DNA of 30,618 nucleotides, taken from assembly GCA_030670015.1 (NCBI GenBank), contig DAOVCM010000001.1:1-30618 (forward strand), read 5' to 3'. The DNA comes from Candidatus Bathyarchaeota archaeon (GTDB lineage Archaea; Thermoproteota; Bathyarchaeia; TCS64). The notes below the pieces were generated by a model, which was not told where the DNA came from, did not search any database, and saw only the letters and a program-made list of their open reading frames with translations. Position 1 is the stretch's first letter; the number at the start of each line of letters is the position of its first letter. Positions 4,768 to 28,470 of the stretch are shown here, piece by piece. Position numbers and translations under genes: made by a program.

Positions 4768-4792
4768 CAGCCGCGGCCTGATCATTTCCGAG

Positions 4793-6467: not shown

Positions 6468-6480
6468 TGGGAGAAAAAGG

Positions 6481-7815: not shown

Positions 7816-7864
7816 TAACTTCCCTTATCTGAACTCCGTCATCTATCCTTAAAAAAACTGGGTC

Positions 7865-8209: not shown

Positions 8210-8221
8210 GTTCGGAGTAAC

Positions 8222-10030
8222 CTACAAAAGGTAGACTATGATGGCGGCGAAAAAGAATACGATCGGTGCTATTATCAACCCAGCCGTCTTAAAGAGGCTG
8301 AAGCCGGATTCTAACACTTGTCTCAATGCACGCAATCCCTTTGAACCGAGCACGGACACCCCAGGTATCTTCGTCCTTACATGGTGGGCTCTACTCGTTC
8401 GAAGTCGTGAGACGGCTTTTTCAACCGTTTCTACGGTGTAGTCAATGACCTTCTGTTTATCCATATTTTCCCCGATGGGGAAATAGCCACTGCTAGTTGC
8501 ACCTATTGCGTTGACGAGATGAGTGTCGGAAGTCATGACCTCGACTTCGTCGATACCTCGGCCTCTCACAGCCCCGACGATGGCCTCCCTAAGCCCGCTC
8601 ATCATATTGTTACCATCGATAACAACGTAGGCAGATGTCTGGCCGTTCTCTAATCGCACAGCAATTGCGGCGATACCGCAAGGGCCCATACCGTCTTCCA
8701 ACCCCCATTCACGGGGAAGAACACGGGCGACGCCTACGGCAAAGTCGGATTTTGTAATCATCTTTGCACGAGACATAGCCGCAGTAGCTGCATCGTAAAG
8801 GCTGTCAACATCGTATTCATCGAGTTCACGGTCCAGCAATAAGCTGTGGTGAGAGTCCACGACTACGGCGGTAAGACCTAGCCCCATCGCTGCATCCATA
8901 ATCCTATCGGCTAGCTCCTCTGGAAGGTCATCATAGTTTTTTGGGGAGAGGGAAAGGGTGATGATGGCTACATCTCCGAAGAGCTGGCATGACGCTTGGG
9001 CTCCATCGCCCTCAGACCATATAAGGGACGAGGCAAGGGGGGAGTCACTTGAACACCGGAGATAGGAGAGAATGCTATCAGCGACCCTCTCTGAGTCCCT
9101 GCTCCGCGTCATATCTCTTTCGTGAGTCGAGATACCATGAGCTACAAGAGTCTCGCAACTCAGCCTTTGGCCTATTCTGTCCACCAGCACGCTGGGCAAA
9201 TCGCTACTACCCACGTTCTTAAAAGGACCTGGATGAATGTAGGGTACTATTAACGCGGCAATACAATCTCCTGTCACGTCGTCGAAGACTATGGAATCAA
9301 CCATTAGATCCCTTATCTCGCCGAGGGATGTTATCTGTTCCTCAAGGGGCTCGTTCACCTCCTCAGCCCAAGCGAGTACAAACGCCCTTAGGAGGGGGAT
9401 TAACTTCAGCCCTGGGTGTTTACTCCTCCACCTCCCCAAGACCCTCAACAATAACTCCACTCCTCCAACCAAAATGGCCACAGCCAACACGCCGAGGCCT
9501 AGTATTCGAGTTCCTTGAAAGGGGAAAAGTATAGTTGCCGCTGCGAAGCAGAGGCTTGGCTGCAAGAAAATGGATGTCAGATTCCTCAATGGATCATCGA
9601 TTGTAAGAACGTTAATACTCAGATAGCGTAGAGAGGTGTTGATTGCAACAGCCATCATGATGCCCCTGAGGATAATATCGGAGCGTACAGTTACTGCACT
9701 CATAACGGATGAGATGATGATTATCACAGTATAGACGATACTTGAGACATATGTCAAGATGGTGAACCTCCTTGGGTTCAGCAAGACATCACCTCTGAAC
9801 ATGGGCTGTATCAAAAAATCGGATAGTAAAAGGGGGAAAGCGAGTCCGAGGAGACCATATTGTAGACCATGGACTATACCTGTTGACATCGATCCAATAT
9901 CGAAGGAAAGGACTCCTCCTAGAGTCGAGATGGTGATTATAACAGCGATCATTGATCTTCGGGAGGGAAACGTGAAGAGTAATGAGTAGTAGTCCACAAT
10001 CCTCTCGGATGCTTCTCTTCCATCAGACAA
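8222..10030 (-). CDS. DUF2070-family archaeal membrane protein
   Basis: Multi-TM N-terminus, then HPGPFKNVGSSDLP, HGISTHE, DSHH, DGNNM and TSDTHLVN, and a C-terminal TM helix. Confidence 0.8.
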   Translation of the reverse strand: MSDGREASERIVDYYSLLFTFPSRRSMIAVIITISTLGGVLSFDIGSMSTGIVHGLQYGLLGLAFPLLLSDFLIQPMFRGDVLLNPRRFTILTYVSSIVYTVIIIISSVMSAVTVRSDIILRGIMMAVAINTSLRYLSINVLTIDDPLRNLTSIFLQPSLCFAAATILFPFQGTRILGLGVLAVAILVGGVELLLRVLGRWRSKHPGLKLIPLLRAFVLAWAEEVNEPLEEQITSLGEIRDLMVDSIVFDDVTGDCIAALIVPYIHPGPFKNVGSSDLPSVLVDRIGQRLSCETLVAHGISTHERDMTRSRDSERVADSILSYLRCSSDSPLASSLIWSEGDGAQASCQLFGDVAIITLSLSPKNYDDLPEELADRIMDAAMGLGLTAVVVDSHHSLLLDRELDEYDVDSLYDAATAAMSRAKMITKSDFAVGVARVLPREWGLEDGMGPCGIAAIAVRLENGQTSAYVVIDGNNMMSGLREAIVGAVRGRGIDEVEVMTSDTHLVNAIGATSSGYFPIGENMDKQKVIDYTVETVEKAVSRLRTSRAHHVRTKIPGVSVLGSKGLRALRQVLESGFSLFKTAGLIIAPIVFFFAAIIVYLL

Positions 10031-10140
10031 ACCGAGCCGTAGCCCCCATAACCCAAAAAGAGCCTACTAATCCTTCAATCTACGCCTATAATTGCTTATA
10101 GAATTTCAATACGGTGGACCTTGCGAAGGTTATGACGATC

Positions 10141-10311
10141 CTAAGGAAATAGGATATGAGCAACTATCACACTCAGGATTAGAGTTATGGCCCCCGCTAA
10201 CACAAATTCAGGTTTTATCTTCACACCATAGGCCTCGTCCTGGAAGAACCTCATCAGCCCTGCACTGGACGCCGGCATGGTCGTACTTTTCTCTTTTTTC
10301 TTCTTGCTCAC
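10141..10311 (-). CDS. Preprotein translocase subunit Sec61beta (56 aa), absent from ORF track
   Basis: MSKKKKEKSTTMPASSAGLMRFFQDEAYGVKIKPEFVLAGAITLILSVIVAHILFP*. Has the AGLxRFF...KIxP signature, a C-terminal TM helix, a GTG start and an upstream AGGAGA. Confidence 0.9.
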   Translation of the reverse strand: MSKKKKEKSTTMPASSAGLMRFFQDEAYGVKIKPEFVLAGAITLILSVIVAHILFP

Positions 10312-10453
10312 TGATAACTCTCCTGTTCAATTCAGGGTGAGCCTAGAAAAAAAGGTTTGCCTATTAAAAGATTCCTCTCATTCCTTTTGTTTGAATCTGG
10401 GTTAGATCTTGTATAATATTGAGGAAAGTAAGATCGTGTCATGATGTTGGGAT

Positions 10454-10889
10454 TTAGTATCGCCTTCGGCTTCTGCCGTCGTATCTGTCTCTGCCCCTGC
10501 CGCGGCGGGGATCATACGTGGCCCGTTCGAACTACCTGTTTGAGAGGTTGTTATCGAGATTTATCTCTTCGAATGGGACTTCGTCTTTTACCTCGTAGCT
10601 GTCATAGCGCCCCAAGTTGAGACGCATTGATCCTCTGAACAGGTTAACGTATCCATTGGATATTCGGAGTATTTGTTCATTGGACACGCCTTCTACGTCT
10701 TCGTCCCAGAGGGTTAGATATACGTTGCCTGTCTCGTCACCAACCAGGGCCTCGCAGACACGGTGTGTCGACGAGTCGGCTCTCAAGGTTACATCCCGCG
10801 GCTCGGTCTTTTAAACAACTTTGACGAGGGTGTTGACACCTCGAGAATAAGAATTCAAATCTCCGATTTTAACGGGTTCCCCACTTCAT
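10454..10889 (-). pseudogene. ssb: Single-OB-fold ssDNA-binding protein (TACK-type SSB), disrupted
   Basis: One frame reads SGEPVKIGDLNSYSRGVNTLVKVV*KTEPRDV...ALVGDETGNVYLTLWD...NNLSNR*FERATYDPRRGRGRDRYDGRSRRRY*. In-frame TAA at 10811-10813 and TAG at 10532-10534. The nearest ATG (10889) is one base out of frame. Confidence 0.8.
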
Positions 10890-10973
10890 TCTCCATGTAT
10901 AGTCATATGGGTACTCTCATTTTGTTGGTGGCTGATCAGCGTGTTACGCCTGATATAATTTTTGATGGTTTAC

Positions 10974-13900
10974 TCAGGTCCTCATGAAATCTTTAAGGCT
11001 GATCTGTTTCTCCTCAGTTTCCTCGTTAACCCCCACCTCCGGGAAAAGGGAGGCTATCTCATCCTTCACAAGCATGAGCCTGTCGAAATAATAGCTGTCT
11101 AGTCCATATCGCTCCACCATATCCAAAGCTGGTACCAAGTACTTCACTATGCCTCCCTTATAGACGGTCATGGAGATTTTACCCCCGCACCTTATGCACA
11201 CCCCTTTCAGCGGAGGCCGCCTGTACTTGCGGTTGCATTTGACACACCTGAACCTCTGACGTGTGAAAGCCCGCAGGTTCCCGACTATGTCCTTCATGAA
11301 GTGGCTGGTGAGGATTCGCTGTGCGACAATCTTAGCATCCACCGCCCTCAGTTTCTCAGATAGGTCGAGCTGGCTTTCTAGCTTCTCAAGCATGGTCTTG
11401 AGGGTATTATAGGCTCCTAGGTGAGCCCCCTGGTTGATGTCTGAGCACTCATTGGTATACTCAAAGCCCTGGAATTGAGCTTCGGTACCAAGCCTTCTCC
11501 CAATGGTGTCGACGAGGGCTCCGTACACCGCCGGGCTCGCCTCCTCGTTGCAGAGTTTATAAAAGTCTGGGGGGTAACGGGTCATCACGTCCACGTTGTG
11601 GGCCTCTTTGTCCACCTCGCTTGGATGGAGAATCGGTATCACATAGAGAGGGGCATCCATGAGGCCTCCGCTCTTCGTGGGGAGAAACTCCCGGGAGAAA
11701 TTAAGAAGGGGGTCGAGGCCGAGCATGATGGCGTCCTCGTCTCCGTCGCAGTTCCGTCTCTTCGCCGCGTGCCAAAGCGGGTGAGCGTAACAGACCCGGG
11801 TCTTTGTGTATCCTATGACCCTGCCTATGATCGTGGCGGATGTGTGGGGGGCTAGGCCGTGGATGAGTTGGCCTACTACATCGCCTGGTTCACGGATATT
11901 ATAGAATGGTTCCTGTCCGTAGAACTTTGTCAGTAGATCATCGAGGAATTTTGACACCTTTACAAGGTATTCGCCGCAATCCTCCGGGAGTACAACGTCT
12001 TGAACCTTCAGCTCAAGCATCTGCTCAGGTGATTTGAGGAGCGTTCCCTCCTTATCATGAGTGTAACCTAGTTCATACAGCCTCTCAACTGAAACCCCTA
12101 CCTCATGCGGTGTAAAGTGGGTAAGGGGGACATCTGTTATGTCGTACCTCAGGGTACCATCCTTGAACATAGAGAGGTCATACCGAGCCCGTAATAGTCC
12201 CTTCTCAAGGGGTTCTGGCACACGGTTCTTGTTCATGAGGCTCTTGACGCCTTTAAACCTCTTGGGAAGTTGGCCTCCAACCCTTTTTAAGGCGGTCTCT
12301 AGTAGAGCCCTGACGTCGATGTCTGTGGTGTGACTACCCACGGCGTCAACGTTGCAGACGGGGCATCTTTCGTCATCTAGCGGCCTTCCGCATCTAGGGC
12401 ACCTCCACTGGATGAAAGTCTCCTCCCCACAGGTGGAACATTTAACTCCAAAGGAAGGAGAGCCACAGATGGGGCAGTGACGGTTGACTATCTGTACAGA
12501 GGTTTTGCGCCCCCTACCTATCCTAATTATATCTCTTTGAGGTCCTCCCTCATTCCCTACTGGGAACAAGCCGTGCACGTATGGTGACATCTTCCTTTCC
12601 CTAGCTTTCTCCGGCCGTCCCATACGCGCGCCCACGTGCACCGGCGACTTCTCTCTCACGTCTACACCTGAGAGCTTTCGTATAATCGCTATAGGCGTCT
12701 CCGATGCACTCTCTACATACAGATGGTCTAGAGCCAGGCATCTCTCTAAGATGGGAGCGACTTCTTCGAAGTGAATTTTACCGTCTACGACTCTGTGTGG
12801 GACAAGAAGGTATTCCAAGGTTTCCTTGTCCTTCTCATCCAGTTCTACTTCAAACGGCTCTGAGGAGGGCCAGGAAGCCGCGAGGTTTTCCCTAAGTCGG
12901 AGAAGCGCCTCAGTGGACACTGAACTCCAAGGGTATGTGTACCGTGGGTGAAGAGGTACCCCCGCACGGGTTATGTCAAGCGCTTCATCAGGCGTGGGTT
13001 TTATCGATGGGTTTTCCATCAAAACCTTCAATCTCTCAGGAAGCACCCCACTAGTCTCGGACGCTGTATCTACACCCGGCTTCCTGAGAATCCGTTTCAG
13101 GTCATGGTGCCACTGGTTCTCATCGTAGCCAGTCTTCAGGAGATTCTTGTTGTTCTGGAGAAAGTCACCTGCGTTGATGAGAACATCACCCAGCGAAAGT
13201 ATGGAGTCCACGGAATCTAAGAGTCGCTCAGCTTCTTCATCGGTATCCACACGGAGGACCGTTCCATCCCTTAGCTTCACCACCGCCGGTTCTATCGAGT
13301 CCACAGGCGTGACTACTGCCGATTTCCCGGGGAGTTCTATTCTTAATTGGACTCCTGAGGTAAGAAACCTGTTGAGAATACGCATGGTGGCAGGGTGAAC
13401 GCCTACAGCCGCGAGACCTGTGTTCCGAGCCCTGCCATATCTAAGCCTGAAGCCTCCAACCGTGTTTGGGAAGGAGAATACAGGACGGCCTACAATTATC
13501 TCCTCCATGAAGCTGGCTGTTTTCTTGGAGAATTCTGAATTCTTTTGCTCAAGTTTTGAGAGCCATTCCCAGCCATCCAGGCCAAGTTTTTCACATATGC
13601 CGCAGAGCTTCGCCGCACGGCCGACGACGCCATCAACGACCACGATGAGAGCCCCGCCTCTGAGGCGGTTTGTCTCGATCCCAGGTATGTTCCTGTAATT
13701 GGAAACCTCGTAGCGTTCGGTGGATACTCCGGTTGCCTCGACAGGGAGATTCTTAATCGCGATCCTGATGTTCTCGTCTGTGACATGGTACTGGAACCGG
13801 CGGACCTGCCTCTCATAGAGGCGTACCTCCTCCACGAACCTTCCCACGTCGTCATCAGAGGGAAAAAACCTTTCCAGGCCGAGCCTCCGCCGGACAAAAT

Positions 13901-14384
13901 CAGCAACCACCAATGTAAGAGCTTGAGCAGTGCCTCCTGCAGGCCTGATCGGGCCCGCGAAGTAGACGGCAAGGTATTGACTGAGGTCGGTGTTCTTTTT
14001 GATCTTTATCTCAGGGATACCTTGGATCGGGGCGACCGTCACGCCTTCCGTGATGATTGCGAGGGCTGTCCTTATAGCCTGATCAGCTGCAGCTTCCCTC
14101 TCAAGTTTTCCGAATCGGCCGAGGATGATTTCCTCTGCAACCTTGAACGCCAACTCCCTTCGGTCCATTCCCTCCAGCTGTCGCATCCGCTCTCCTATGC
14201 CGGGAGGACCGATCAGTTTCTCAATTCGCTCTGCAATATCATGGGTTTCCTGTGGTTCTGGTATAAGGGTTGGGTCTAACCCCTTCTTACGCGCCTGTTT
14301 CGCGATTTCGTAAAGCTCGTTGACTCCATCCTGTAGATACTTGAAATACACCTGATATTCCGTGGACATATGGAGCTCGTTCAA
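10974..14384 (-). CDS. polC: DNA polymerase II (PolD) large subunit DP2
   Basis: YFAGPIRPAGGTAQAL, GRMGRPEK, RRNCDGDED catalytic motif, two Cys clusters and a C-terminal PIP-like QISLKDFM. 1136 aa with no intein-sized insert. Confidence 0.97.
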   Translation of the reverse strand: MNELHMSTEYQVYFKYLQDGVNELYEIAKQARKKGLDPTLIPEPQETHDIAERIEKLIGPPGIGERMRQLEGMDRRELAFKVAEEIILGRFGKLEREAAADQAIRTALAIITEGVTVAPIQGIPEIKIKKNTDLSQYLAVYFAGPIRPAGGTAQALTLVVADFVRRRLGLERFFPSDDDVGRFVEEVRLYERQVRRFQYHVTDENIRIAIKNLPVEATGVSTERYEVSNYRNIPGIETNRLRGGALIVVVDGVVGRAAKLCGICEKLGLDGWEWLSKLEQKNSEFSKKTASFMEEIIVGRPVFSFPNTVGGFRLRYGRARNTGLAAVGVHPATMRILNRFLTSGVQLRIELPGKSAVVTPVDSIEPAVVKLRDGTVLRVDTDEEAERLLDSVDSILSLGDVLINAGDFLQNNKNLLKTGYDENQWHHDLKRILRKPGVDTASETSGVLPERLKVLMENPSIKPTPDEALDITRAGVPLHPRYTYPWSSVSTEALLRLRENLAASWPSSEPFEVELDEKDKETLEYLLVPHRVVDGKIHFEEVAPILERCLALDHLYVESASETPIAIIRKLSGVDVREKSPVHVGARMGRPEKARERKMSPYVHGLFPVGNEGGPQRDIIRIGRGRKTSVQIVNRHCPICGSPSFGVKCSTCGEETFIQWRCPRCGRPLDDERCPVCNVDAVGSHTTDIDVRALLETALKRVGGQLPKRFKGVKSLMNKNRVPEPLEKGLLRARYDLSMFKDGTLRYDITDVPLTHFTPHEVGVSVERLYELGYTHDKEGTLLKSPEQMLELKVQDVVLPEDCGEYLVKVSKFLDDLLTKFYGQEPFYNIREPGDVVGQLIHGLAPHTSATIIGRVIGYTKTRVCYAHPLWHAAKRRNCDGDEDAIMLGLDPLLNFSREFLPTKSGGLMDAPLYVIPILHPSEVDKEAHNVDVMTRYPPDFYKLCNEEASPAVYGALVDTIGRRLGTEAQFQGFEYTNECSDINQGAHLGAYNTLKTMLEKLESQLDLSEKLRAVDAKIVAQRILTSHFMKDIVGNLRAFTRQRFRCVKCNRKYRRPPLKGVCIRCGGKISMTVYKGGIVKYLVPALDMVERYGLDSYYFDRLMLVKDEIASLFPEVGVNEETEEKQISLKDFMRT

Positions 14385-14397
14385 TACTTTGTCTCCA

Positions 14398-14736
14398 CTA
14401 CTCAGGACTGTGAATCCTGCATAGCATGACTGTGGACCATTTCTCCATTTCTCTGCCAGTCGAGGCCGTGTATGCTTCTGAAGCTATCCTGCTCCTGTGC
14501 GTGACACAGGTATCGCATCTGGGGTGCCGTAGGTCAGAGGGACCGTCGCACTCCCCGCAGTTGAGGAGGAGTGTCTCGCCAAGACTTCTGAGGGTGGTCC
14601 ATGAGTATTCGTTCTCGTCGTAGACGGGCTCAAAGTCAGGCCATATGTCAAATAGCCTCGGTTTCATCAAGGCCTTCTTAAGGGCGTTGAAGAAGCTCTC
14701 GAAGGATGTCACTTTATCACCTTCTAGTTGACTCAA
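14398..14736 (-). CDS. Hypothetical Cys-rich protein (CxxC-x8-CxxC)
   Basis: LNCGECDGPSDLRHPRCDTC. Overlaps the GGGP synthase gene by 20 bp and ends 13 bp before DP2. Confidence 0.7.
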   Translation of the reverse strand: MSQLEGDKVTSFESFFNALKKALMKPRLFDIWPDFEPVYDENEYSWTTLRSLGETLLLNCGECDGPSDLRHPRCDTCVTHRSRIASEAYTASTGREMEKWSTVMLCRIHSPE

Positions 14737-15472
14737 TGTAGGAGACGATCTCGTATATGCTTTCCCTTACACCTTTTGTCTTCTCTACAAGGGTTCCTGT
14801 CACGATAATGTTGGCGCCTGCCTCAACCGCCGCCCTTGCGATTGGACCAGATTTTATACCGCCACCCACAATCAAGGGCACCGATAGGTTGTTTTTAACC
14901 AGTTTAATCATCCCTAAAGGCACTGGGGCTTTGGCACCAGATCCAGCCTCAAGGTAGACGAAGCGCATACCAAGGGTCTCGGCTGCGAGACTGTAGCCAA
15001 GGGCTAGTTCCGGATAATCATAGGGGATGCCCCTCGCTTGGCCTACAAACCCTGCTGCTCCACCATCCCCTATGATTATGTATCCCATAGGAATGGCTTC
15101 AAGTTCATACCGTCGGATAAGATGAGCTGTGAGAGCCTGTACATCTATTAAATAGTAGGTGCTGGACGAGTTGAGAAGAGACATGAACCAGATGGCGTCG
15201 GCATAACGGCTCACCCCGGATATGTTGTTGGGGAAGAGGATAACCGGCACTTTTACCTTTGATTTGATCTCCTTTACAACCTCGTCCAGATCAGAGTTCG
15301 ATGCCATGGTGGACCCACCTACCATAATTGCGGATGTTCCAGCCTCATCTGCCTCAGCGGCGATTTTAATGCACGCCGAAGATTCTGTTTTTTGTGGGTC
15401 AAGGAGGGTCATATGGATCGCTCCCTTATCCCTAATCTTATCGTAGATGTACTGTTCTACAGTTTTACTCAA
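14717..15472 (-). CDS. Geranylgeranylglyceryl phosphate synthase
   Basis: TLLDPQK, AIMVGGST, ILFPNN, FVYLEAGSGA, VGGGIKS and IVTGT; PcrB/GGGPS TIM-barrel family. Confidence 0.92.
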   Translation of the reverse strand: MSKTVEQYIYDKIRDKGAIHMTLLDPQKTESSACIKIAAEADEAGTSAIMVGGSTMASNSDLDEVVKEIKSKVKVPVILFPNNISGVSRYADAIWFMSLLNSSSTYYLIDVQALTAHLIRRYELEAIPMGYIIIGDGGAAGFVGQARGIPYDYPELALGYSLAAETLGMRFVYLEAGSGAKAPVPLGMIKLVKNNLSVPLIVGGGIKSGPIARAAVEAGANIIVTGTLVEKTKGVRESIYEIVSYIESTRR

Positions 15473-15722
15473 CGGCTACTTCCTCCTGAAGTTTCCCTTC
15501 ATAGTAGCTGTCAGTGAAGAGACAGTAAGCATCAACCTCGCTCATCTGGGGCTTAGCAGGGAATATTCCGTTCAGACTGCAATTACTACAGATCACAACA
15601 GCCCTGTTTCTCTTCTTGTCTATTGTTCCTTTGACAGTGTTCTTACCACATCTTGGACACAGAAACAGCTCTGGCAGCTTCCTTCTTCTGACCTTTACAA
15701 CTTTTCTCCGCCTACGCCCCAT
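15465..15722 (-). CDS. elf1: Transcription elongation factor Elf1
   Basis: MGRRRRK basic N-terminus, FLCPRCG...ICSNC zinc ribbon and VDAYCLFTD. Confidence 0.9.
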   Translation of the reverse strand: MGRRRRKVVKVRRRKLPELFLCPRCGKNTVKGTIDKKRNRAVVICSNCSLNGIFPAKPQMSEVDAYCLFTDSYYEGKLQEEVAVE

Positions 15723-15754
15723 TTTCCTAGCCCCTCCTCTTCAAAATCAAATCA

Positions 15755-16576
15755 TCAAGTAACCGAACTAAGTCTTAAGATTAGTGGAAGCTGCCTTTTA
15801 TGTTTGTTAGCTCTGACACGCCCCAATATTCTCTGAACTAAAAGAGGCGAAACATCTAAACTCTCCGCTATTTTGTTCTCAGGTAATCCCTTCTCATATC
15901 CATATAGGATCAAATCTATGATGTCGTACGAGCTCCCCAGCTCCTCCTCGTCGGATTGCCCAATCCATAATCCTGCCGTCGGCGTTTTTTTGATGATTTT
16001 TTCAGGAATATTCAACTGCCTCGCAAGCTGTCGTACCTGGTTTTTATACAAGTCTACCATGGGCAAAAGGTCGACTGCGCCATCGCCATATTTAGTGAAA
16101 TATCCTGTTAACCACTCTGTTTTATTGGTACTGCCGATAACCATTCTATTCATAATGTTAGCATAGTGATAAGCAACGATCATTCTAGTCCTCGCTTTCA
16201 TGTTACCAGAAGAAACCATATCGTTGGGGTTATAGAGCGGTAGAACTCTTTTCATCAACTGAACCAAGGACGTGATATCAATGATATCACATGTTACATC
16301 TAACATATCTGTCAGCTGCATCACGTCTGTGATGTCACTCTCAGGTGTGATGTCACGCTCTGGCATGGTTATGGTTCTTACTTTTTTTGATTTCAACGCC
16401 TTGACTGTAAGAGCGAGAACAACGGCTGAATCTACTCCCCCGCTCACAGATACAATAGCGCCGTTAAGACCTGAGATCTCTACTTGTGACCGAATGAAAA
16501 AGGATATTTCCTCTATTACTTTAGGAGCGTCGAGTGTTAAAAACTCTGTAGATAACATACTTATTTTCAATAACAT
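15755..16576 (-). CDS. nadE: NH3-dependent NAD+ synthetase
   Basis: SGGVDSAV, GNMKARTRM, GSTNKTE, GYFTKYGDG, DLYKNQV, PTAGLW and HKR. Start at ATG 16576 or 16558; the ORF track extends to 16648. Confidence 0.93.
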   Translation of the reverse strand: MLLKISMLSTEFLTLDAPKVIEEISFFIRSQVEISGLNGAIVSVSGGVDSAVVLALTVKALKSKKVRTITMPERDITPESDITDVMQLTDMLDVTCDIIDITSLVQLMKRVLPLYNPNDMVSSGNMKARTRMIVAYHYANIMNRMVIGSTNKTEWLTGYFTKYGDGAVDLLPMVDLYKNQVRQLARQLNIPEKIIKKTPTAGLWIGQSDEEELGSSYDIIDLILYGYEKGLPENKIAESLDVSPLLVQRILGRVRANKHKRQLPLILRLSSVT

Positions 16577-16781
16577 TCTGTAGTTTAAGCGTTTTTCTTC
16601 ATGAAATATTACATATATCATTAAATATTTAATCAATAATACATACAAGTTTTAATAAATATGAATAGATACACTATGAATGTAAATGAAGTTGTATCAA
16701 AAAAGTTATCTCACACCGTATACAATTTTGTCTACGGTAACATAACGTGTTCAATAAAATGATATTCAGGAAAGTGAGTCT

Positions 16782-17243
16782 GTGTTGAATGAAAATAATC
16801 TACAAAATCTAGTTAACCGGTCATTTAAAGACCCAATTGCAGCAATATTACTTAAGAACAGTAATTTTACGACCGTTCAATATGAATGTCTTATTATTAA
16901 CTATATAATAGATAATTACTCTGATAAAGAGATTACTTATAATAAAAAGGCGTTATATAGGTCTAAAAAAGTAAGTAGGGGTTCATTTAGCCGTACTTTA
17001 TCTCAGGCAAAGAGGAATATAATTTCATCTATATACACAATATTACTTTTAACGTATATAGGAATCTTCGATACTGTCCCCTTTGATGAATATAAAAATC
17101 TAGCTGAAAAACTGAGTGAATATCTTGATCTGATTCAAAGTTCAGATACAACGCAAGCAAGACATTTTTTACGGCGTATAGAAAAGGAATTGATAGAAGG
17201 AATCCGTATTCTTGCAGAGACTCGAAGCTTAAAAAACGTGTGA
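16782..17243 (+). CDS. Conserved archaeal hypothetical protein with HTH-like segment
   Basis: KVSRGSFSRTLSQAKRNIISSIYTILLL resembles an HTH recognition helix followed by a long helix. Its stop codon lies inside the first TGTGATATCACA box. Confidence 0.65.
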   Translation: MLNENNLQNLVNRSFKDPIAAILLKNSNFTTVQYECLIINYIIDNYSDKEITYNKKALYRSKKVSRGSFSRTLSQAKRNIISSIYTILLLTYIGIFDTVPFDEYKNLAEKLSEYLDLIQSSDTTQARHFLRRIEKELIEGIRILAETRSLKNV

Positions 17244-17260
17244 TATCACATAAAATCACA
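17239..17260. repeat. Palindrome box 1 (TGTGATATCACA plus phased half-site TAAAATCACA)
   Basis: Perfect 12-bp palindrome at 17239-17250. The 22-mer is a 21/22 inverted copy of 17780-17801. Confidence 0.9.
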
Positions 17261-17779
17261 AAATAAAGAAGAAGTTTTTAGGTTAAGAGGTAACATTTCG
17301 GTAGGAGAGTATCTTTCATTTATACAAACTTTCATTAATTTGTAAAATACAAAATACGATCACAGTTATTAGTGCATCCATATCAGTAAAACGGGATTTA
17401 AAAATTAACATAGTATCGTAATTAATTTTCGAAGTTTCTCTATTATTTTTCTAATTTCTAATAACGCTTTGTTTCAAGCTAAAAATCGATATAGTTCATA
17501 TAACATACTATATTTATATTTCATCATATAATAGGATATATTTATAGTTTTAAAGATAAAATATTAATTATTATGGGATAAAAGATAAAGAAAATAAAAT
17601 TCTCAATTAATAATCATCGTCAAAAAATACATAATCACCTATCCTCTCAGACCAACTCTTAACAAAGTTGATCAATGTTAAAAAACATAAATATTTTATC
17701 TTACAAAATGTTGTAACCAAATAATACTTTAGTAGATTTATAAGAAATAATAATTATCCTTTTTCAGAGTCATTATTGA

Positions 17780-17801
17780 TGTGATTATATGTGATATCAC
17801 A
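17780..17801. repeat. Palindrome box 2 (TGTGATTATA plus TGTGATATCACA)
   Basis: Perfect 12-bp palindrome at 17790-17801, with a half-site 10 bp upstream. Confidence 0.9.
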
Positions 17802-18089
17802 ACCTTAAATGTCTGAGATTTTTCAATCAGTGTGGTTATAGGTATTCATACTAAATAATCAAGATACAAAAATTATCCAAGATTCTAAATAAACGCAAAT
17901 GGCTCTTCTCTTAAGAGATAGTAATAATCGAAAATAGGGTATATTTATTTAAAATATCCTTTTATTTTCCTTATTATATATTATCTAAAACATACCTATA
18001 CATATCTAGTCAAGGATTTTTGGTTCTCCCTTAGAGAGCATATGAACCGAATGGTTGATTGTGGAATAGCTCCTTAGATATTCTTTTCA

Positions 18090-18172
18090 TGTGATTTTCC
18101 CCGTTCATCTGTGATATCACGTGGGTTAACAGAGGTCACAGCTTATCACATTGGAGTTACATGTGATATTAC
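18090..18172. repeat. Palindrome box cluster 3
   Basis: TGTGATTTT (18090), TGTGATATCAC (18110-18120), TCACA ending at 18140 and 18150, TTACA ending at 18161, and TGTGATATTAC (18162-18172). Confidence 0.85.
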
Positions 18173-18535
18173 GGATCCTAAACCTGCTTGAATAAGGGGA
18201 TATTTTATAATGCGAGGTCTAAAATGTCGTTGAAGTATTGAATCGTAAAATAGTCGAATTTTAATCATACATTTGTTATTAATAACTCAGTTATTCACCA
18301 AGTATATTTTTCTAAAAAAAACGATTCATACACAAATAACACAATGTTATATAACTTAATTAAAGATCATAGAAGAGAATAATTGTAAAAACCATGAAAG
18401 TCATGCTCTAAGGACTAGCTAAACCCAAATAAAAAAAGGTGCAAAGTCTATCTTGGGAACTCTCAAAAAAGGAAACAATAAAATAGTTAAAATAAAATAA
18501 TATTTAGTAGGAACATTAGTATATGGTGAGGGGTT

Positions 18536-19204
18536 TTGGAACTTTTCTTCGCCACGATGTCACTATTCGTAGTTACGATCGTAGGTTCTTTCATCTATTA
18601 CAAACGGATCAGAAAGGCTCAAATAGAGTATGAGGGCTCGAAGGACCTCGTTAGGAGTTTAACATTCGGTTTTACCCAGCAGCTAAGTAAATTTTCAAGA
18701 ACTATTGGGAGCCTTAGACAGGAAGTGTTAGGTGCCCATAGTATCGCATCTGAAGCTCTGAAGGCCAGTCGTGATGCAAAGGAGGTCATGAGGGAGGGAA
18801 GGGAGGAGACGGAGAAAATATCAAAGCGTATGGATGATACGGAGAAGGTATTTGATTCAATGAGGCAGGAGATGCAAGAGCTAGTAAGTAGAAAAGTTGT
18901 TCATCCTGTAAAAACAGAGGTAGAAGCGCCTATACCATTGAAACAGGAGGCAGTTCTAGACATGCTGACCCAGACGGAACTTGTCGTTCTTACATCTATA
19001 GAGGAGATGGTTGAGGGGTCGGGCCCGGAAATCAGGAAGCGTATTGGAAAAACGAGGGAGCACACGGCAAGATTACTGAAAAAATTATTCGAGAAGGGTT
19101 ACATAGATCGTAACACCAGTGGTATGCCTTACAGATATTACATAAGGAAGGAGATCAAGGAACTTATTCAGCAGCAGAAGGAAGCTATGAGGGTCGCCTT
19201 CTAA
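18536..19204 (+). CDS. Membrane-anchored coiled-coil protein with C-terminal winged helix-turn-helix
   Basis: N-terminal TM (LFFATMSLFVVTIVGSFIYY) followed by KRIRK, a heptad-rich helical middle, and LTQTELVVL...IGKTREHTARLLKKLFEKGYIDR wHTH. GGTGAGG SD-like sequence upstream. Confidence 0.75.
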   Translation: MELFFATMSLFVVTIVGSFIYYKRIRKAQIEYEGSKDLVRSLTFGFTQQLSKFSRTIGSLRQEVLGAHSIASEALKASRDAKEVMREGREETEKISKRMDDTEKVFDSMRQEMQELVSRKVVHPVKTEVEAPIPLKQEAVLDMLTQTELVVLTSIEEMVEGSGPEIRKRIGKTREHTARLLKKLFEKGYIDRNTSGMPYRYYIRKEIKELIQQQKEAMRVAF

Positions 19205-19269
19205 CCTAGGAACCACCTGTGAACAAGTATTTATACATCTAAAGGATAGAAACGGAGCGGAGAGTCTGT

Positions 19270-19617
19270 ATGAAATCAACGATAGTAGAGTATGCTCCTA
19301 AATTTGAGCCAGTGAAAGGTGCCATGATGACACTTATAGGTGATGGAGAAAAAATGACCTTTGTTAGGATCTACATCCAGCCGGGCACCGTTTTTCCGGA
19401 TCACAGTCATCCTAACGAGCAGATAGGAACCTGCGTTGAGGGTAAGGGCATCCTTACATCCGGAGGTGAAGATCTCAAGGTAGAGCCTGGAGTCACCTGG
19501 TCCATCCCCGGTGGTGAGGTTCATAAGTTCGAGGCCGTGGGAGACCAACCGGTTGTCATCTATGAAGTCTGGAGTCCTCCCAGAGAGGATTACAGGTCAA
19601 TGGCAAAAACAGTATAA
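19270..19617 (+). CDS. Cupin domain protein
   Basis: HSHPNEQ...EG and IPGGEVH cupin metal motifs. Confidence 0.85.
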   Translation: MKSTIVEYAPKFEPVKGAMMTLIGDGEKMTFVRIYIQPGTVFPDHSHPNEQIGTCVEGKGILTSGGEDLKVEPGVTWSIPGGEVHKFEAVGDQPVVIYEVWSPPREDYRSMAKTV

Positions 19618-19655
19618 GTCGTCAATCATAACACTCACTACCGGAGCCTTTCACC

Positions 19656-21155
19656 GTGTCGGTGGAGTTGAGAGAAGCCCTTGGTAAAATAATCGAATCC
19701 GGCTACCAGTTAAGCGCCGATGCATTCGATTATCTGAAAACCTTGGACAGGGATATCCTTCAAGACACCGTCAGACGGGTTCTCCTTTTCGCCAACTCCT
19801 CCGAAAAGGATGTTGTCATCCTCGATAGAATATTCTTTCAAAAAGTGATAGAAAGAAGTCGTGAAAAGTCAAAGGTCAAGGGATTCATAACTGGGAAATC
19901 CCTTGGTAGGCCTCTCGCCAGCGAGTATGAGGGGCAGATTCAGGTTCTAAACAATCAGCCTCCTGAGCCTTCCGGTGACCTGAAAGGATTCATCGACTAC
20001 TTTCGAAGTCGCTTCAAAAAGATCGAGGGTATATTTCGTAAAAGAATAGATATGAAAGATGTTGTCACTATTGGTATAGCCCAAAAAATGCCGTTAAAGT
20101 CAAAGATGAAGGTGATCGGTATGGTGACTACGAAGAGGGCGTCGGGGCCTCGCCTTTTCATCGAATTAGAGGATCCCGAGGACTCCATCACGGTGATGAC
20201 GTCGGACAGCGAGACAGTGAGAAAGGGACTAACCATCCTTCAAGATCAGGTTATCTGCGTGGACGCAGTCAAGTTCAAGCATGACCTCCTAATTGCGAAC
20301 GACTTTATCTGGCCGGACATACCCAGCCACTCACCGCGGAGATCTGAGATTCCGATGTGCGTCGCCTTTTTAGCTGATCTCCACATAGGCAGCAAACTTT
20401 TCCAGAAGAAAATTTTCAACCGTTTCATCAGGTGGATGAACTTGGAAGTCGGAAGACCAGAGTCAAGAAAAATGGCGGCTCGGGTAAAGTACGTTATCAT
20501 CACCGGTGACCTTGTGGATGGTATAGGCGTCTACCCTAACCACATGGATGAACTGGAGATCAAGGATATTAGAGAACAATACGAGACGGCGGCTCTCATA
20601 CTATCCGAGCTCCCAAACTACGTTGAGATCATTATCATACCTGGCAACCATGACCCCGTTCGAAAGAGTCTCCCCCAGCCACCTATCTCCAAGCAGTACG
20701 CTGAAAGAATACATAACGATGATAGAATTCATTTATTAGGGAACCCCAGTCATCTTCTCATCAATGGGGTAGAAGTTTACATTAGCCATGGGAAGGCTTT
20801 GGAAGAAGTTCTCTCACGTATCCCTGGAATGAACTTCCATAACCCTGAGGTCGGTATAGAACTTTTACTTCGCTGCAGGCACGTGGCGCCAACTTATGGT
20901 ACGTCAATTCCCATTGCCCCGGAGAAGGTTGACAGACTAGTTATTGAATCCACTCCAGATATCATACAAATGGGGCATATCCACGTCTACGGTTATAGGA
21001 GATACAAAGGAACTACCATTATCGCATCTGGCTCATGGCAAGAGCAGACATCTTTCCAGAAGAGGGTGAACTTATCCCCCACAATCGGGATAGCGCCTAT
21101 AGTTGACCTCCAGACACACAATATTGCACCTCTCGACTTTACCAAATCTTACTAA
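19656..21155 (+). CDS. polB: DNA polymerase II (PolD) small subunit DP1, proofreading exonuclease
   Basis: OB fold (IGMVTTKR...IELED), then ADLHIGS, GDLVDG, PGNHD, HG, RHVAPTYG and GHIH phosphoesterase motifs. Confidence 0.95.
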   Translation: MSVELREALGKIIESGYQLSADAFDYLKTLDRDILQDTVRRVLLFANSSEKDVVILDRIFFQKVIERSREKSKVKGFITGKSLGRPLASEYEGQIQVLNNQPPEPSGDLKGFIDYFRSRFKKIEGIFRKRIDMKDVVTIGIAQKMPLKSKMKVIGMVTTKRASGPRLFIELEDPEDSITVMTSDSETVRKGLTILQDQVICVDAVKFKHDLLIANDFIWPDIPSHSPRRSEIPMCVAFLADLHIGSKLFQKKIFNRFIRWMNLEVGRPESRKMAARVKYVIITGDLVDGIGVYPNHMDELEIKDIREQYETAALILSELPNYVEIIIIPGNHDPVRKSLPQPPISKQYAERIHNDDRIHLLGNPSHLLINGVEVYISHGKALEEVLSRIPGMNFHNPEVGIELLLRCRHVAPTYGTSIPIAPEKVDRLVIESTPDIIQMGHIHVYGYRRYKGTTIIASGSWQEQTSFQKRVNLSPTIGIAPIVDLQTHNIAPLDFTKSY

Positions 21156-21717
21156 GTCCTCGGGCAATGATTCCCGCAGTTCTAACAGGTTCGGGAATCC
21201 TACTTACAATTGCTGAAAGCTGTAATATGTGTTCACCCCATTTATTTGAGCATCCTATTACCTCAAAGTAAATGGGAGGTTCCTTGGGATGAGTTCTTGT
21301 GCTGTACACGGGCCCCAATTTTTTTATTATATCCCATCGCCAATGCCAGTCATCAAAATGCTTTTTGAGGGCCAACAACATTTTTTCGTTATCGGGTCGA
21401 GTTCCTGAATAAATGATAACAGGTATACCTGTCTCATTGAGTATTTTATTGGGATCTATGATATTGAATCCTGCAAATGTGATGCCTCCCAATATGACTG
21501 CATTTACCTCAATATTCTTAATGATGCTCAAGAGTTTCTGTGTGGCGTCTGCTCCGTCAATCTGGATTTTCGCAAGCCTTACGTCTATGATTTTGTCTAA
21601 TTCAGTTTCTACCCCACAGATAATAGTGAACGATGGAGTTGCACTAGAGAACTCTTTGAAGCTTCCGTCCTCTACGCCGAAGAGATGAATCATGTTTTTT
21701 AAGTCTTTATTAGTCAA
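21139..21717 (-). CDS. DUF99-family protein (endonuclease V-like fold)
   Basis: GVEDGSF, QIDGADAT, ILGGITFAGFNIID and IPEPVRTAGIIARG. Confidence 0.85.
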   Translation of the reverse strand: MTNKDLKNMIHLFGVEDGSFKEFSSATPSFTIICGVETELDKIIDVRLAKIQIDGADATQKLLSIIKNIEVNAVILGGITFAGFNIIDPNKILNETGIPVIIYSGTRPDNEKMLLALKKHFDDWHWRWDIIKKLGPVYSTRTHPKEPPIYFEVIGCSNKWGEHILQLSAIVSRIPEPVRTAGIIARGLSKIW

Positions 21718-22145
21718 TATTTCTCAATTTTACCGTAAATTTCAGACCTCAAAAGAAATTGTGGATATATGTTTTTGGGGACCTCAACGATTCCGTCGTG
21801 TATTATAATTTTATTTATACTACTCAGAGATTCTTTGTTGAGGTCTTTTTCGAAGGTTAGTCGACCTGAGGTCTCTATGTTAAATTTCCCAACTTCTTTT
21901 TTTATGTTTATTATATCTTTATTAGAGAGAGATATCTCCCCATTATTCTTCAGTGTGAACATGTTTCCATCGTTTCCACTTGTGCCATTATTTCCACCTT
22001 TACCGTTAGTTCCTCCATTTAGGAACTCTCTCAAAGCGTAATTGACTACTTCTGCAACACGTTTACCATCCTTCTTTGCCATTGAAAAAACTTCGTGGTA
22101 TAGATCTGTGTCGAGTCCTCGAATGGCAACGGTTTTGCGGGGCAC
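21714..22145 (-). CDS. Ribbon-helix-helix-like DNA-binding protein with C-terminal domain
   Basis: KTVAIRGLDTDLYHEVFSMAKKDGKRVAEVVNYALREFL fits a beta-alpha-alpha RHH pattern, followed by a G/N-rich linker. Start moved to GTG 22145; the ORF track gives 22193. Confidence 0.65.
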   Translation of the reverse strand: MPRKTVAIRGLDTDLYHEVFSMAKKDGKRVAEVVNYALREFLNGGTNGKGGNNGTSGNDGNMFTLKNNGEISLSNKDIINIKKEVGKFNIETSGRLTFEKDLNKESLSSINKIIIHDGIVEVPKNIYPQFLLRSEIYGKIEKY

Positions 22146-22171
22146 TTTAACACGTCCACATGATTGAATGT

Positions 22172-22197
22172 TTACTTGTTTACATGTTAACAAGTAA
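22172..22197. promoter_or_regulatory. 26-bp near-perfect palindrome (putative operator)
   Basis: TTACTTGTTTACATGTTAACAAGTAA: 12 of 13 positions pair. Adjacent to the self-complementary TATA-like CTTATAAG at 22199-22206. Confidence 0.65.
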
Positions 22198-22262
22198 TCT
22201 TATAAGAATATCGCATGGGATGATATTACACCGCATTCAACACAGTTTTTCCGGAGGGAGGG

Positions 22263-22925
22263 ATGGGGTTAGATCATATGTTAGAGGTAGATAGGACCAT
22301 CGGTGATAAAAAACACACGGTAAATTTCTCGCAACATGAAAATAACCTAAGTAAGTATGTAGAAATATACCGTAGGTTATTATTATTAAATGAGAAAAAT
22401 AACCTAGCAACGACCCTCAAAAACATACAGGAGTTACTATCTTTCACTGAAAATATTTTCTCTTCTTCCTCTATTGCTGAGACATTTCTATATTTCTGTC
22501 TTCACGGTGCTTCAACTGCTTGGGTTCTACAGAACGAGTTGAATATGCCAGAAGCTACTGCTTATAGATGTTTAAAACGGCTTAGATCTCTTGGAATAAT
22601 TATACCTGCTATTAAAATTTCTAAGATTAAGAATTCGAAAGGTGGACCAAGACCAACGATTTGGGCTCTAAAGGAAACGCCTACGGAAGAGATTGCTAGA
22701 GCACTTAGACTTCATTATCAGATGCTCAGCCCAAAATTCCGTGTTGCAGAGAAAGTTGCACAGACCATTCTTGACGAGTATATTACTAGGAGAAAAATCT
22801 ATGAGATCTCTTATAGAGAGATCGTGTTGCATGTTAAGGAGCTTAAAATGCCCTTTAGAGCACCTGACATAGCTGATCTTGCAGCTGATTATCTTCACGA
22901 GAAAGGCATAAAGGTGTGGAGATAA
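22263..22925 (+). CDS. Hypothetical winged-helix DNA-binding protein
   Basis: TFLYFCLHGASTAWVLQNELNMPEATAYRCLKRLRSLGII is a wHTH with a wing ending GGPRPTIWAL. The C-terminal helical domain may be a second WH. Confidence 0.65.
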   Translation: MGLDHMLEVDRTIGDKKHTVNFSQHENNLSKYVEIYRRLLLLNEKNNLATTLKNIQELLSFTENIFSSSSIAETFLYFCLHGASTAWVLQNELNMPEATAYRCLKRLRSLGIIIPAIKISKIKNSKGGPRPTIWALKETPTEEIARALRLHYQMLSPKFRVAEKVAQTILDEYITRRKIYEISYREIVLHVKELKMPFRAPDIADLAADYLHEKGIKVWR

Positions 22926-23006
22926 AATATCTGTCTTTTTTGGTGATTTACAATCCTTATTTAATTGATATAAAATAACAATTATTAAAATATTTTTTAA
23001 AATAAT

Positions 23007-23870
23007 TTATCTTATCTTTTTCATTTCTCTTCGCGCATCAATATGAGCACTTCTCAAGGGTTCTGGAAGATTCCCCTTTAACATCATTTCATTAACAATT
23101 TTTACACTTGTTTCTAGAGAAATTCGATGGCCAACAGATACATACAATGGAGAACGAGAATCAGTCCTTAATTCTGTACACGCGCTGGCTCCATCTCGTA
23201 ATAGCGATTTACAATCATAATGCTTTTCCCCGTTTGAACTTACCAATCGTCTTCTAGCTATACCAATGGTTGGTATATCTAACTCTAAGCCTACACATGT
23301 TGCGAGACCACAACATCGTGGATGCGCTATACCATGCCCATTAACAAATAGCAGATCAAACTCTGATACAAGCTTGGATGTTCTTTCTATTGATGGAGCC
23401 TCCCTGAACATGAAGTATCCTGAGATGTATGGGAAATGTACAGTAGATACTGTTGATGCCTTTTCTAATATTTTGAAACTTCTTTCCATGATGACGCAGA
23501 CAGCATATACCTCATAACCTCTATATGCTGCGTCAACCCCTGCAAATCTATTTAATTCTTTAAAATCATCCTCTTGAATTACTCGTTTTGACATACTCAG
23601 CTGAAGCTCCGCGAGCCGCTTAAGAGGCATATCCGAAGAGAAATCCCTGAAGATTTTTGTTTCCGGAACAAGGTTTTCAACTATTTTATGTCTATTTTTT
23701 CGTAGTTCGTTTCTCATAATCCGAGATATTGAAGGCGCTGCATCCGAGTCACCGAGGGAGGATGCTAGGTGATATGGCGTTGAGACCCTTCCTTCCGGTA
23801 TCTGGTCTAATAGGCTGTTTATTGCTGTGTATAGGTCTACCTCGGGAACCCTCATTTTTATGAGAAACAT
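23007..23870 (-). CDS. nfi: Endonuclease V with N-terminal AGT/MGMT-like DNA-binding domain
   Basis: EndoV motifs GVDAAY, PYISGYFMFREAP, NGHGIAHPR...GLA, PTIGIA, YVSVGH and PEPLRSAH. The N-terminal LLDQIPEGRVSTPYHLASSLG resembles the AGT HTH. Confidence 0.8.
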   Translation of the reverse strand: MFLIKMRVPEVDLYTAINSLLDQIPEGRVSTPYHLASSLGDSDAAPSISRIMRNELRKNRHKIVENLVPETKIFRDFSSDMPLKRLAELQLSMSKRVIQEDDFKELNRFAGVDAAYRGYEVYAVCVIMERSFKILEKASTVSTVHFPYISGYFMFREAPSIERTSKLVSEFDLLFVNGHGIAHPRCCGLATCVGLELDIPTIGIARRRLVSSNGEKHYDCKSLLRDGASACTELRTDSRSPLYVSVGHRISLETSVKIVNEMMLKGNLPEPLRSAHIDARREMKKIR

Positions 23871-23964
23871 TGGTGCTTATTGTGTTTATGTTATGATCTA
23901 TGATGTGAAATTGGTTTTTTGGTGTTATACTTGGATTATAAAAGGGTTGGTGGATTGATTAGTT

Positions 23965-25419
23965 TCAACTTTTTTCTATCTTCCAGATTGTGCCTTCAGA
24001 TGTGTCGGAGAGAATCACTCCTACCTTGGAAAGTTCCTCTCTTATTTGGTCGGAGAGAGTGAAGTTTCTATCCGTTCTAAGTCGCTCTCTAACTTTTGCG
24101 ATGATGTTTATCAGGTCTTGTGTTAACTCGTCAACTCCTGTACTAGTTGCCTCAAAAAGGCCTAGAACGTTCAGTAGACTGTGATAGATAACTGATGCCT
24201 TCATGAGGACTCCCTTGTTGGGGCCCTTTGCTATGTAATCATTTATGGTTTTGGAGAGGGCGTGAAGGGCGTTGAAGGCACTGTGAGTGTCGATGTCATC
24301 GTCCATGGCGTCTTCAAATGCTTTTTTGTGTGTGGATATTTCATGCAGAAATGTTTCTTCAATGTCGCCATAGTCAAGCTTTTCGTATTCGTCTTTACAT
24401 GCGTTTTCGATGAGGTTTAGTGTGTTCCTTAGTTTTTGCAACGAGTTCTCGGCGCTTTCCATTGCGGCCTCTGTATAGTCTACTTGCTTCCGGTAATGGG
24501 TGGAGAGGTAGAAGTATCTGAATACGTCTGGGGAGTATTTTGTTAGTACTTCGTCGAAGGAAACGTAGTTACCGAGGCTCTTGCTCATCTTTCTTCCGTT
24601 TATCTTGAGGAACCCTCCGTGCATCCAGAAGCGAACGAATTTTGTTCCTGTGTATGCTTCGGACTGAGCTATTTCGTTCTCATGATGGGGGAAGATGAGG
24701 TCCTCGCCTCCTGCGTGGATGTCTAGGGTGTCACCTAGATATTTACGTGTCATTACGCTGCACTCAATGTGCCATCCCGGTCTCCCTCTGCCCCAAGGTG
24801 ATTCATAGTAGATGCCGCGTTCTATTTCGTCTGGTGTCGACAGCTTCCAGAGAGCGAAGTCGTTGGCTGTCTCCTTCTCGTATTCGTCTACTGTCATCCG
24901 TTCGGTCTTCTTCACAGCTGAGAGGTCGACACCGCTGAGTTTTCCGTATTCTTGGAATTTGTCTATGTCAAAGTAGACGCCATCCCCAGATACGTAGGCG
25001 TACTCCTTTTTGATGAGGCCTTGTACGAACTCTATCATATCCTGAACATGTTCGGTAGCCCGGGGGTATACTGTAGCTCGCTTCATATTGAACCAGTCGA
25101 GGCCTCTGAGGAAGGACTTGACGTATCTTTCGGTGAACTCTTTTAGGGACACACCTTCTTTGCCCGAGTTGCGTATAGTCTTGTCGTCGATGTCGGTTAT
25201 GTTCATCACGTAGAACACGTCATACCCGCGATACTCCAGCCATCGTAGGACGATGTCACCGAGCAGGAAGCTACGAAAGTTGCCTATGTGGGGGTCACTG
25301 TAGACGGTGGGACCACAGACATACATCCTCACCTTCCCCTGCTCAATAGGTTCAAACGGCCGTTTACGCCGTGTGAAGGTGTCGTAGAACCGAAGCCCCA
25401 CTGGGTTTTTCATGGCCAT
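23965..25419 (-). CDS. cysS: Cysteinyl-tRNA synthetase
   Basis: [14 protein letters not shown] (HIGH), [25 protein letters not shown] and KMSKSLGN. Confidence 0.97.
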
Positions 25420-25577
25420 CTCTATACATCCCTCAATTTTTTCCTAGAATCAGCTAGACCTGGCGGCGAGACGAAGGTCAGTTCTGGCGCGTGGTACACA
25501 ATAGTCTCAATCTTCCATGTCTTTCTAGCTGGAGAAATGACTGTTAACCTCGCATTTAAACTTAAGGGTGCAGTTAA

Positions 25578-26210: not shown

Positions 26211-26213
26211 GTG

Positions 26214-27179: not shown

Positions 27180-27391
27180 ACTTATCGTCCTGTACTTTGG
27201 CGGCTCCAGTTTATATCTCTGAGCTTTTTGGGAGGATAATGGGCTGATTAAGGCTCTTTAGGTGAAGGATGTATCTTGTTTAAAATGCCAGGATGAGCGC
27301 TTAGTTGGATGATAGAAACCTTGAGAGAGGTGGATCTATGTCTTCTATAAGATACTAAATGTTTAATAATTATAATTGGGAATTTTAAGGT

Positions 27392-28455: not shown

Positions 28456-28470
28456 GGCTCATCTGTACCT

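Follow-up and report, generated by a model that had tools for sequence, protein, structure and literature searches.

Does the AT-rich gap between the two divergent sets of DNA polymerase D (PolD) genes in this Bathyarchaeota genome serve as a replication origin and, if it is not an origin of the known kind, what is it? The window, by which we mean the whole stretch of 30,618 nucleotides that was analysed, is the entire contig C91 of a 1.34-Mb metagenome-assembled genome (MAG; 262 contigs, 78% complete). A preliminary description of this DNA had placed a candidate origin in the gap, and most of what it said about the setting holds. The gap (17244-18535) is 1292 bp long, free of ORFs and 26.5% GC, compared with 51.6% GC in the left flank (1-16576) and 46.6% in the right flank (18536-30618). 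It separates DP2 and its minus strand neighbours from a plus strand set made up of a membrane-associated, coiled-coil winged helix-turn-helix (wHTH) protein, a cupin and DP1. RPA, an SSB-like protein and Alba are all encoded in the window, and no orc1/cdc6 is found among its genes. The genes that could be identified between 6481 and 16648 do all lie on the minus strand, but we count eight ORFs where ten had been reported (aminotransferase, Alba, DUF2070, SSB-like, DP2, a 112-aa ORF, PcrB and NadE). The SSB-like ORF looks like an intact small gene, because 83 of its residues align with relatives at 64-72% identity. The AT-rich tract begins upstream of the gap, at about 16580, and takes in the orf153 gene (30.7% GC). 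An Rfam search (E up to 1) gave no match in the gap, and the single gene found by a tRNA scan of the window, tRNA-Pro at 405-483, is far from it.

Table 1. Features of the PolD locus, in window coordinates.
Feature	Position	Strand	Notes
RPA	4950-6467		
Alba	7865-8209	-	
SSB-like ORF	10532-10786	-	84 aa; Ssb-like_OB
PolD large subunit DP2	10974-14384	-	Pfam PolC_DP2 N-terminal, central and catalytic domains, E 1e-102 to 1e-131
PcrB (GGGP synthase family)	14717-15472	-	Pfam PcrB, E 6e-56
nadE (NAD synthase)	15755-16648	-	Pfam NAD_synthase, E 4e-75
orf153	16782-17243	+	Conserved, predicted all-helical HTH-like protein; no Pfam family
Composite site 1	17239-17260		TGTGATATCACA plus half-site ATCACA 10 nt on
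AT-rich core	17261-17779		519 bp, 22.4% GC; between the inverted composite sites
Composite site 2	17780-17801		Inverted copy of site 1 (TGTGATTATATGTGATATCACA); counterpart of the +582 site inside hypF
Distal cluster	18090-18172		TGTGAT, palindrome TGTGATATCACG (18110-18121), GTCACA, ATCACA, TTACATGTGATATTAC (18157-18172); counterpart of the +889 and +956 sites of hypF-bearing relatives
AT-rich region upstream of wHTH gene	18173-18535		27.8% GC
Membrane-anchored coiled-coil wHTH protein, MarR-like C-terminus	18536-19204	+	Pfam MarR, E 7e-5, just under cut-off
Cupin	19270-19617	+	Pfam Cupin_2, E 3e-17
PolD small subunit DP1	19656-21155	+	Pfam DNA_pol_E_B and Metallophos

The gap carries an array of short palindromic sites. 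The palindrome GTGATATCAC occurs as three exact copies in the 1.34-Mb assembly, all of them inside the gap (17240, 17791 and 18111), with a one-mismatch copy at 18163; at up to one mismatch, the window contains 10 matches versus 0.95 expected. TGTGAT/ATCACR hexamers are similarly concentrated, with 17 of the window's 39 falling within 16250-18180 (P 5e-11), and the half-sites TGTGAT/ATCACA are phased about 10-11 bp apart. The first palindrome includes the TGA stop codon of orf153, and the two composite sites are inverted around the AT-rich core, forming a 22-nt inverted repeat (I3) that is 95% complementary. Measured from the orf153 stop codon, the sites lie at about -980, -900, 0, +551, +871 and +923, in rough mirror symmetry around it. 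As the outer sites at -980 and -900 belong to this symmetry, the array extends into nadE, where one-mismatch palindrome sites at 16272, 16281, 16329 and 16347 form a cluster (16272-16356).

The gap is more than a chance feature. The gene order nadE (leftward), orf153 (rightward), gap or hypF, and then wHTH gene, cupin and DP1 (all rightward) was found in 13 of 13 relatives, and the same order, again with a gap or hypF at the gap position, recurs in about 40 further Bathyarchaeia loci. The motifs, whose absence from relatives had been named as a point against the origin proposal, are kept: every relative examined has a palindrome at the orf153 stop codon and further copies at fixed offsets, and in the genomes of five relatives the palindrome is nearly unique to the PolD-gap locus. 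In the one complete relative (CP070784.1), a third genomic copy at 1,037,436 abuts a tRNA 3' fragment.

Relatives also reveal what usually occupies the interval. Whether cdc6 normally sits here had been raised as a question; instead, the 2.5-kb intervals of many relatives contain hypF. Of 43 further Bathyarchaeia loci, about 30 have this gene on the minus strand in the orf153-wHTH interval, so that the DNA between the sites is coding and 45-60% GC. The palindromes of these loci are found at 0 (the orf153 stop codon), at +582 and +889 (both within hypF) and at about -900 (within nadE), and the outer mirror-image sites of relatives are ATCACATGTAA at about -983 and TTACRYGTGAY at about +956.

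How can binding sites persist inside housekeeping genes? We aligned hypF by codon across 27 genomes (mean protein identity 65%). Of all 10-nt windows in the gene, those at the two motif sites rank first and second for conservation (0.993 and 0.974), and the nucleotides immediately flanking them vary. The sites are read in two different phases, as R-D-I-T and V-I-S-Q. Within them, the choice among synonymous codons is invariant (ATA, TCA and ATC at 100%), compared with a mean of 59% at other conserved residues. Additionally, the complete relative carries a second hypF, a paralogue outside this locus, whose residues at the motif positions are unrelated. The fixed codons, the two phases and the paralogue together indicate that selection keeps the DNA sites and that the HypF protein accommodates them. 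The pattern in nadE is alike but weaker: its motif-related stretches are the second and third most conserved 10-nt windows among 36 genomes.

The spacing of 0/+551/+871 in the window resembles the 0/+582/+889 of hypF-bearing genomes, and a hypF-like sequence is present elsewhere in the window's assembly (contig C49). On these grounds we read the gap as the remains of the 3' region of hypF, retained for its sites; most likely, it is an AT-rich spacer left after hypF was lost from the locus. A tblastn search with HypF against the gap gave only non-significant remnants at the sites (E 0.03-0.5), and the case for a former hypF is thus built on spacing and synteny. One observation counts against a mere spacer. 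In the complete relative, the spot homologous to the gap contains the most AT-rich 300 bp of the genome (19.3% GC in a 58% GC genome), and no other ORF-free stretch of at least 400 bp is as rich in AT. This exceeds what relaxed constraint alone would be expected to produce and would fit a role in unwinding. The tract that ranks second for AT content in that genome, at 130.9-131.7 kb, has the appearance of a low-GC foreign island. It was set aside with the other AT-rich spots, as was the third palindrome copy, which resembles a tRNA-fragment site. The 407-aa ORF inserted beside the wHTH gene of the complete relative is an alpha/beta hydrolase.

The same block of genes adjoins a recognizable origin in sister lineages. 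In five complete, AmoA-bearing, 34% GC genomes of ammonia-oxidizing archaea, taken as Nitrosopumilaceae-type, DP2 and PcrB (syntenic, 44% identity) run leftward, and an orf153-like gene, a wHTH-like gene and a small ORF are followed by an intergenic region of about 470 bp, a rightward cdc6 and a leftward DP1. The intergenic region contains two canonical origin recognition boxes (ORBs; GCCTGGARTGGAAAT..GGGG) and a long T-run. In each of the five genomes, 14-15 of 16-19 TGTGAT/ATCACR hexamers fall within 730 bp (P 1e-10 to 1e-13), in a stretch that runs from the 3' end of the orf153-like gene across the intervening DNA into the beginning of the wHTH-like gene. Five loci from other Bathyarchaeia orders displayed a similar pattern. 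There, orf153 is separated by 1-2.2 kb from an Orc1/Cdc6 of 411-450 bits (by as much as about 5.5 kb in further genomes of these orders), and upstream of this Orc1/Cdc6 are ORB-like boxes, which form a clear inverted pair around AT-rich DNA in three of the five. In sister lineages, the ORB origin thus occupies the interval from the wHTH gene to cdc6, which the window does not have; the window's cupin occupies the spot of oriC and cdc6 in other orders. This synteny supports the view that the window locus is the orthologue of a true origin neighbourhood, and to that extent the origin proposal stands. The gap itself has no ORBs, and the proposal fails there: the ancestral ORB origin would have been located beyond the wHTH gene, and most genomes of the same arrangement have a hypF of normal GC content in the gap interval. 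The gap is not a canonical origin, as it lacks ORB boxes.

We surveyed 33 genomes of the window's order, comprising families f1-f4 (labels from the genome-set taxonomy) and including the complete relative, a closed genome of 2.30 Mb; the absences that follow were read from MAGs, of which one is closed, and do not amount to proof of absence. Thirty of these genomes carry only an Orc1/Cdc6 of 185-276 bits, and two incomplete ones (58% and 64% complete) have no Orc1/Cdc6 at all. The origin-linked orc1/cdc6 paralogue was not found in 32 of the 33. The exception is a genome of the same family (G010; C37:503-1597 and C38:67515-68099), which keeps the origin-linked type (384 bits). Its copy of the Cdc6-2 type reads as a pseudogene with nine stop codons, the reverse of its relatives. 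Among eight genomes of other orders, seven have an Orc1/Cdc6 of 417-444 bits adjoining the block, six of them with a weaker second copy; one (87% complete) has no Orc1/Cdc6. The window's assembly has a single Orc1/Cdc6, on the 3.1-kb contig C36, which is 44-50% identical to the unlinked, Cdc6-2-type copy and 29-33% identical to the origin-linked one. The complete relative has its Orc1/Cdc6 343 kb from the gap locus.

The ORBs follow the same trend. The ORB consensus of the lineage, TCCAGTGGAAATAGAGGGGT, gave two to three matches in each of five control loci; the window's contig has no match, and in the complete relative no two matches form a pair. No paired ORBs were found in the 33 genomes of the order, where matches are at the level of the reversed-pattern control, mostly unpaired, and all but two at the three-mismatch limit. 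In the other orders, inverted pairs (at most two to three mismatches) lie beside cdc6 in four of eight genomes, and single or same-strand boxes lie beside it in three more. Throughout the window's order, the arrangement of rightward wHTH gene, optional cupin and DP1 followed by a leftward EndoDU leaves no space for the old origin. These findings support the suggestion that the initiator gene of this locus has been lost. A canonical cdc6-linked ORB origin elsewhere in the order, which could have explained initiation, was not found, the closed 2.3-Mb genome included. Beside the remaining cdc6, we found only a promoter region of 130-200 bp, without repeats or an AT-rich tract.

That promoter region has one conserved, single-copy element, CACTTTCACCCAYCYCTCC ... 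GAACGGACRCAAAGCATAAAT, upstream of the Cdc6-2-type gene and common to four genomes (G000 C36, L001:1582-1711; L047-L049); it may be an autoregulatory site plus promoter. An ArsR-like wHTH gene overlaps the stop codon of the remaining cdc6. In three genomes of family f4, the inverted, three-mismatch ORB-like boxes CCTGTGGACATAGAGGGTT and CCATGGGACATCGAGGGGT are 1.36 kb apart (G027:C49:17753/19114, G030:C206:10141/11502, G029:C61:4584), and this pair could reflect coding conservation or a divergent origin. Just past EndoDU, at 21714-22925 of the window, two ORFs of 159 and 220 aa are conserved neighbours throughout the order, and they were not seen in short stretches from three other orders. If an inversion took place, these ORFs would lie where cdc6 and oriC are expected.

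We also looked for a strand-composition switch in the complete relative, using cumulative GC and AT skew, the Z-curve, strand-corrected GC3, AT3, RY3 and KM3 residuals, gene orientation, and two-segment fits with block permutation. The skew inflection expected of an origin at the gap is missing: none of five measures showed a switch at the array locus (325 kb). Genome-wide, four of the five are no better than block-shuffled genes, which means that skew carries little information for this genome. Strand-corrected AT3 skew gives a marginal V-shaped signal that turns at about 60 and 1642 kb and was equalled by 1 of 100 shuffles. With no ORBs, a hypF-coding interval in relatives and no skew inflection, origin activity of the gap itself is unproven.

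Which proteins might bind the array? The product of orf153 is our candidate. It is 45-69% identical in 12 relatives, and a homologue is present in 138 of 301 genomes of the phylum; among the matches listed for its 1913 homologues, all are without a name or are called 'hypothetical protein'. It belongs to no Pfam or NCBIfam family, and its profile gave one insignificant match (E 2) to PDB sequences. The AF2 model (pLDDT 80) is all-helical, and a fold search of PDB and named AFDB entries found likeness to sigma-70 region 4 and DnaA domain IV; since this likeness is weak and local, we set it aside as a basis for function. The second conserved member of the module is the wHTH gene, whose product has a syntenic homologue in ammonia-oxidizing archaea (E about 1e-10) and homologues in other Bathyarchaeia orders. 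We infer the binder from gene position and the weak HTH likeness of the model.

Based on these results, we propose a model in which the array nucleates an origin-neighbourhood nucleoprotein complex, centromere-like, tethering or origin-accessory, that is bound by the HTH proteins of the locus. We favour this model tentatively, as the likeliest of three readings; an initiation site comes second and an operator array third. According to the model, loss of hypF from the locus would have left an AT-rich spacer that holds an ancient array of binding sites. The binders would be proteins encoded within the array, likely orf153 and probably the membrane-anchored wHTH protein too, and their dimers on the sites could build a higher-order complex. 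In sister lineages, this complex would be located 0.5-1.8 kb from an ORB-DUE-ORB origin. The window's order lost that origin and the Orc1/Cdc6-1 gene and kept only the array module. As sister lineages have both the array and, apart from it, a canonical origin, the ancestral role of the array was presumably something other than origin specification. The gap may or may not still start replication.

Several known systems can be compared with the locus. A canonical archaeal oriC, as in Pyrococcus, Sulfolobus oriC1 and Nitrosopumilus, is an ORB-DUE-ORB arrangement beside orc1/cdc6. Like it, the gap is AT-rich, intergenic and flanked by inverted repeats, has PolD and other replication genes nearby, and holds a position orthologous to the oriC neighbourhood of ammonia oxidizers and other Bathyarchaeia orders. 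Unlike it, the gap has no ORB or mini-ORB and no adjacent orc1/cdc6, its repeats are perfect palindromes of a different sequence, and the orthologous ORB origin is situated beyond the wHTH gene. Clusters of parS sites bound by ParB, and the archaeal SegB sites, consist of a few short perfect palindromes near the origin that are tolerated in coding sequence and long conserved. The array shares these traits: a few clustered, nearly unique copies of a short palindrome near the ancestral origin, kept within coding sequences by DNA-level selection, conserved between distant lineages, and enclosing the gene of a putative DNA-binding protein. Yet no homologue of ParB/CTPase, SegB or ParA/SegA was identified among the window proteins with Pfam and NCBIfam, and orf153 has no family. 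The resemblance to parS is architectural only, and the lack of a ParA/SegA-type ATPase gene in the window counts against the model. At Sulfolobus oriC3, the origin is specified by WhiP, a non-Orc1 winged-helix protein; the window proteins, in contrast, have no shown homology to WhiP/Cdt1. Sulfolobus also has UBP, a non-Orc accessory protein bound to a short motif, ucm, that origin function requires; UBP has 111 aa and a beta-saddle fold, and its sites number in the hundreds per genome (PMC12141716). Archaeal origins do therefore use accessory site-specific binders. The orf153 product is predicted to be all-helical, and its motif is almost confined to a single locus. We rejected homology to UBP because the fold differs, and regard UBP as a conceptual precedent.

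The closest competitor to the nucleoprotein complex is that the gap, or the wider AT-rich tract at 16.6-18.5 kb, is an active chromosomal origin of a non-ORB type. Either the palindrome array with its HTH protein or the Cdc6-2-type paralogue that is left would specify it, and the DNA would open in the 22% GC core. We consider this possible, although less probable than an accessory complex. Replication genes are clustered around the locus, and sister lineages have oriC in the orthologous neighbourhood; the AT-rich core lies between 22-nt composite sites in inverted orientation, and the counterpart of the gap is the extreme of AT-richness in the complete relative. Additionally, since Cdc6-1 is missing from all but one of the 33 genomes and paired ORBs from all of them, another start site is needed, and nothing resembling an origin lies beside the single cdc6 of these genomes. 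Thermococcus and Haloferax, which replicate without origin-linked Cdc6, are precedents for Cdc6-independent initiation, and we know of no work on initiation in Bathyarchaeia. Against an active origin stand the hypF coding sequence between the sites in about 30 of 43 loci of the same arrangement, which means that an AT-rich unwinding core is not a conserved feature; the coexistence of array and canonical origin in sister lineages; and the lack of a switch in skew or gene orientation at 325 kb, the sole marginal signal being that of AT3. We rather doubt, but can imagine, that an entire Bathyarchaeia order initiates at the palindrome array with the HTH protein of the locus, with or without Cdc6-2, as its origin-recognition factor. 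If this were true, it would be a chromosomal archaeal origin of a new type.

It is unlikely that the sites are ordinary operators for the divergent nadE and orf153 promoters and the wHTH-cupin-DP1 operon, with the gap as a long promoter region and orf153 or the MarR-like protein (or both) as repressor or activator: both proteins do resemble small HTH regulators, and the half-sites of ammonia oxidizers and other orders cluster in the 120 bp between orf153 and the wHTH gene, where an operator would commonly be found, but 14-17 half-sites per locus, and sites 550-980 bp away in two unrelated housekeeping genes with synonymous positions kept throughout the order and mirror symmetry, do not fit this explanation.

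Three features of this locus seem to be undescribed, as none turned up in a full-text literature search. The first is a two-gene module of an HTH protein and a membrane-anchored wHTH protein that comes with a half-site array and lies beside oriC from ammonia-oxidizing archaea to Bathyarchaeia. The second is a Bathyarchaeia order in which the origin-linked Orc1/Cdc6 and recognizable ORBs have been lost and the array has been kept and extended. The third is the retention of array sites within housekeeping genes by DNA-level selection. Together they make two questions testable: how replication starts without Cdc6-1 and ORBs, and how the origin region is organized or segregated in Thermoproteota. 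Such tests are feasible because the module is also found in cultivable, Nitrosopumilus-type organisms. Outside this phylum, an Odinarchaeota MAG contig (JAEOUO010000001.1; L213:4034-4504) has an orf153 homologue of 36% identity between Alba and DP1, and the linkage of orf153 to PolD may thus extend beyond Thermoproteota.
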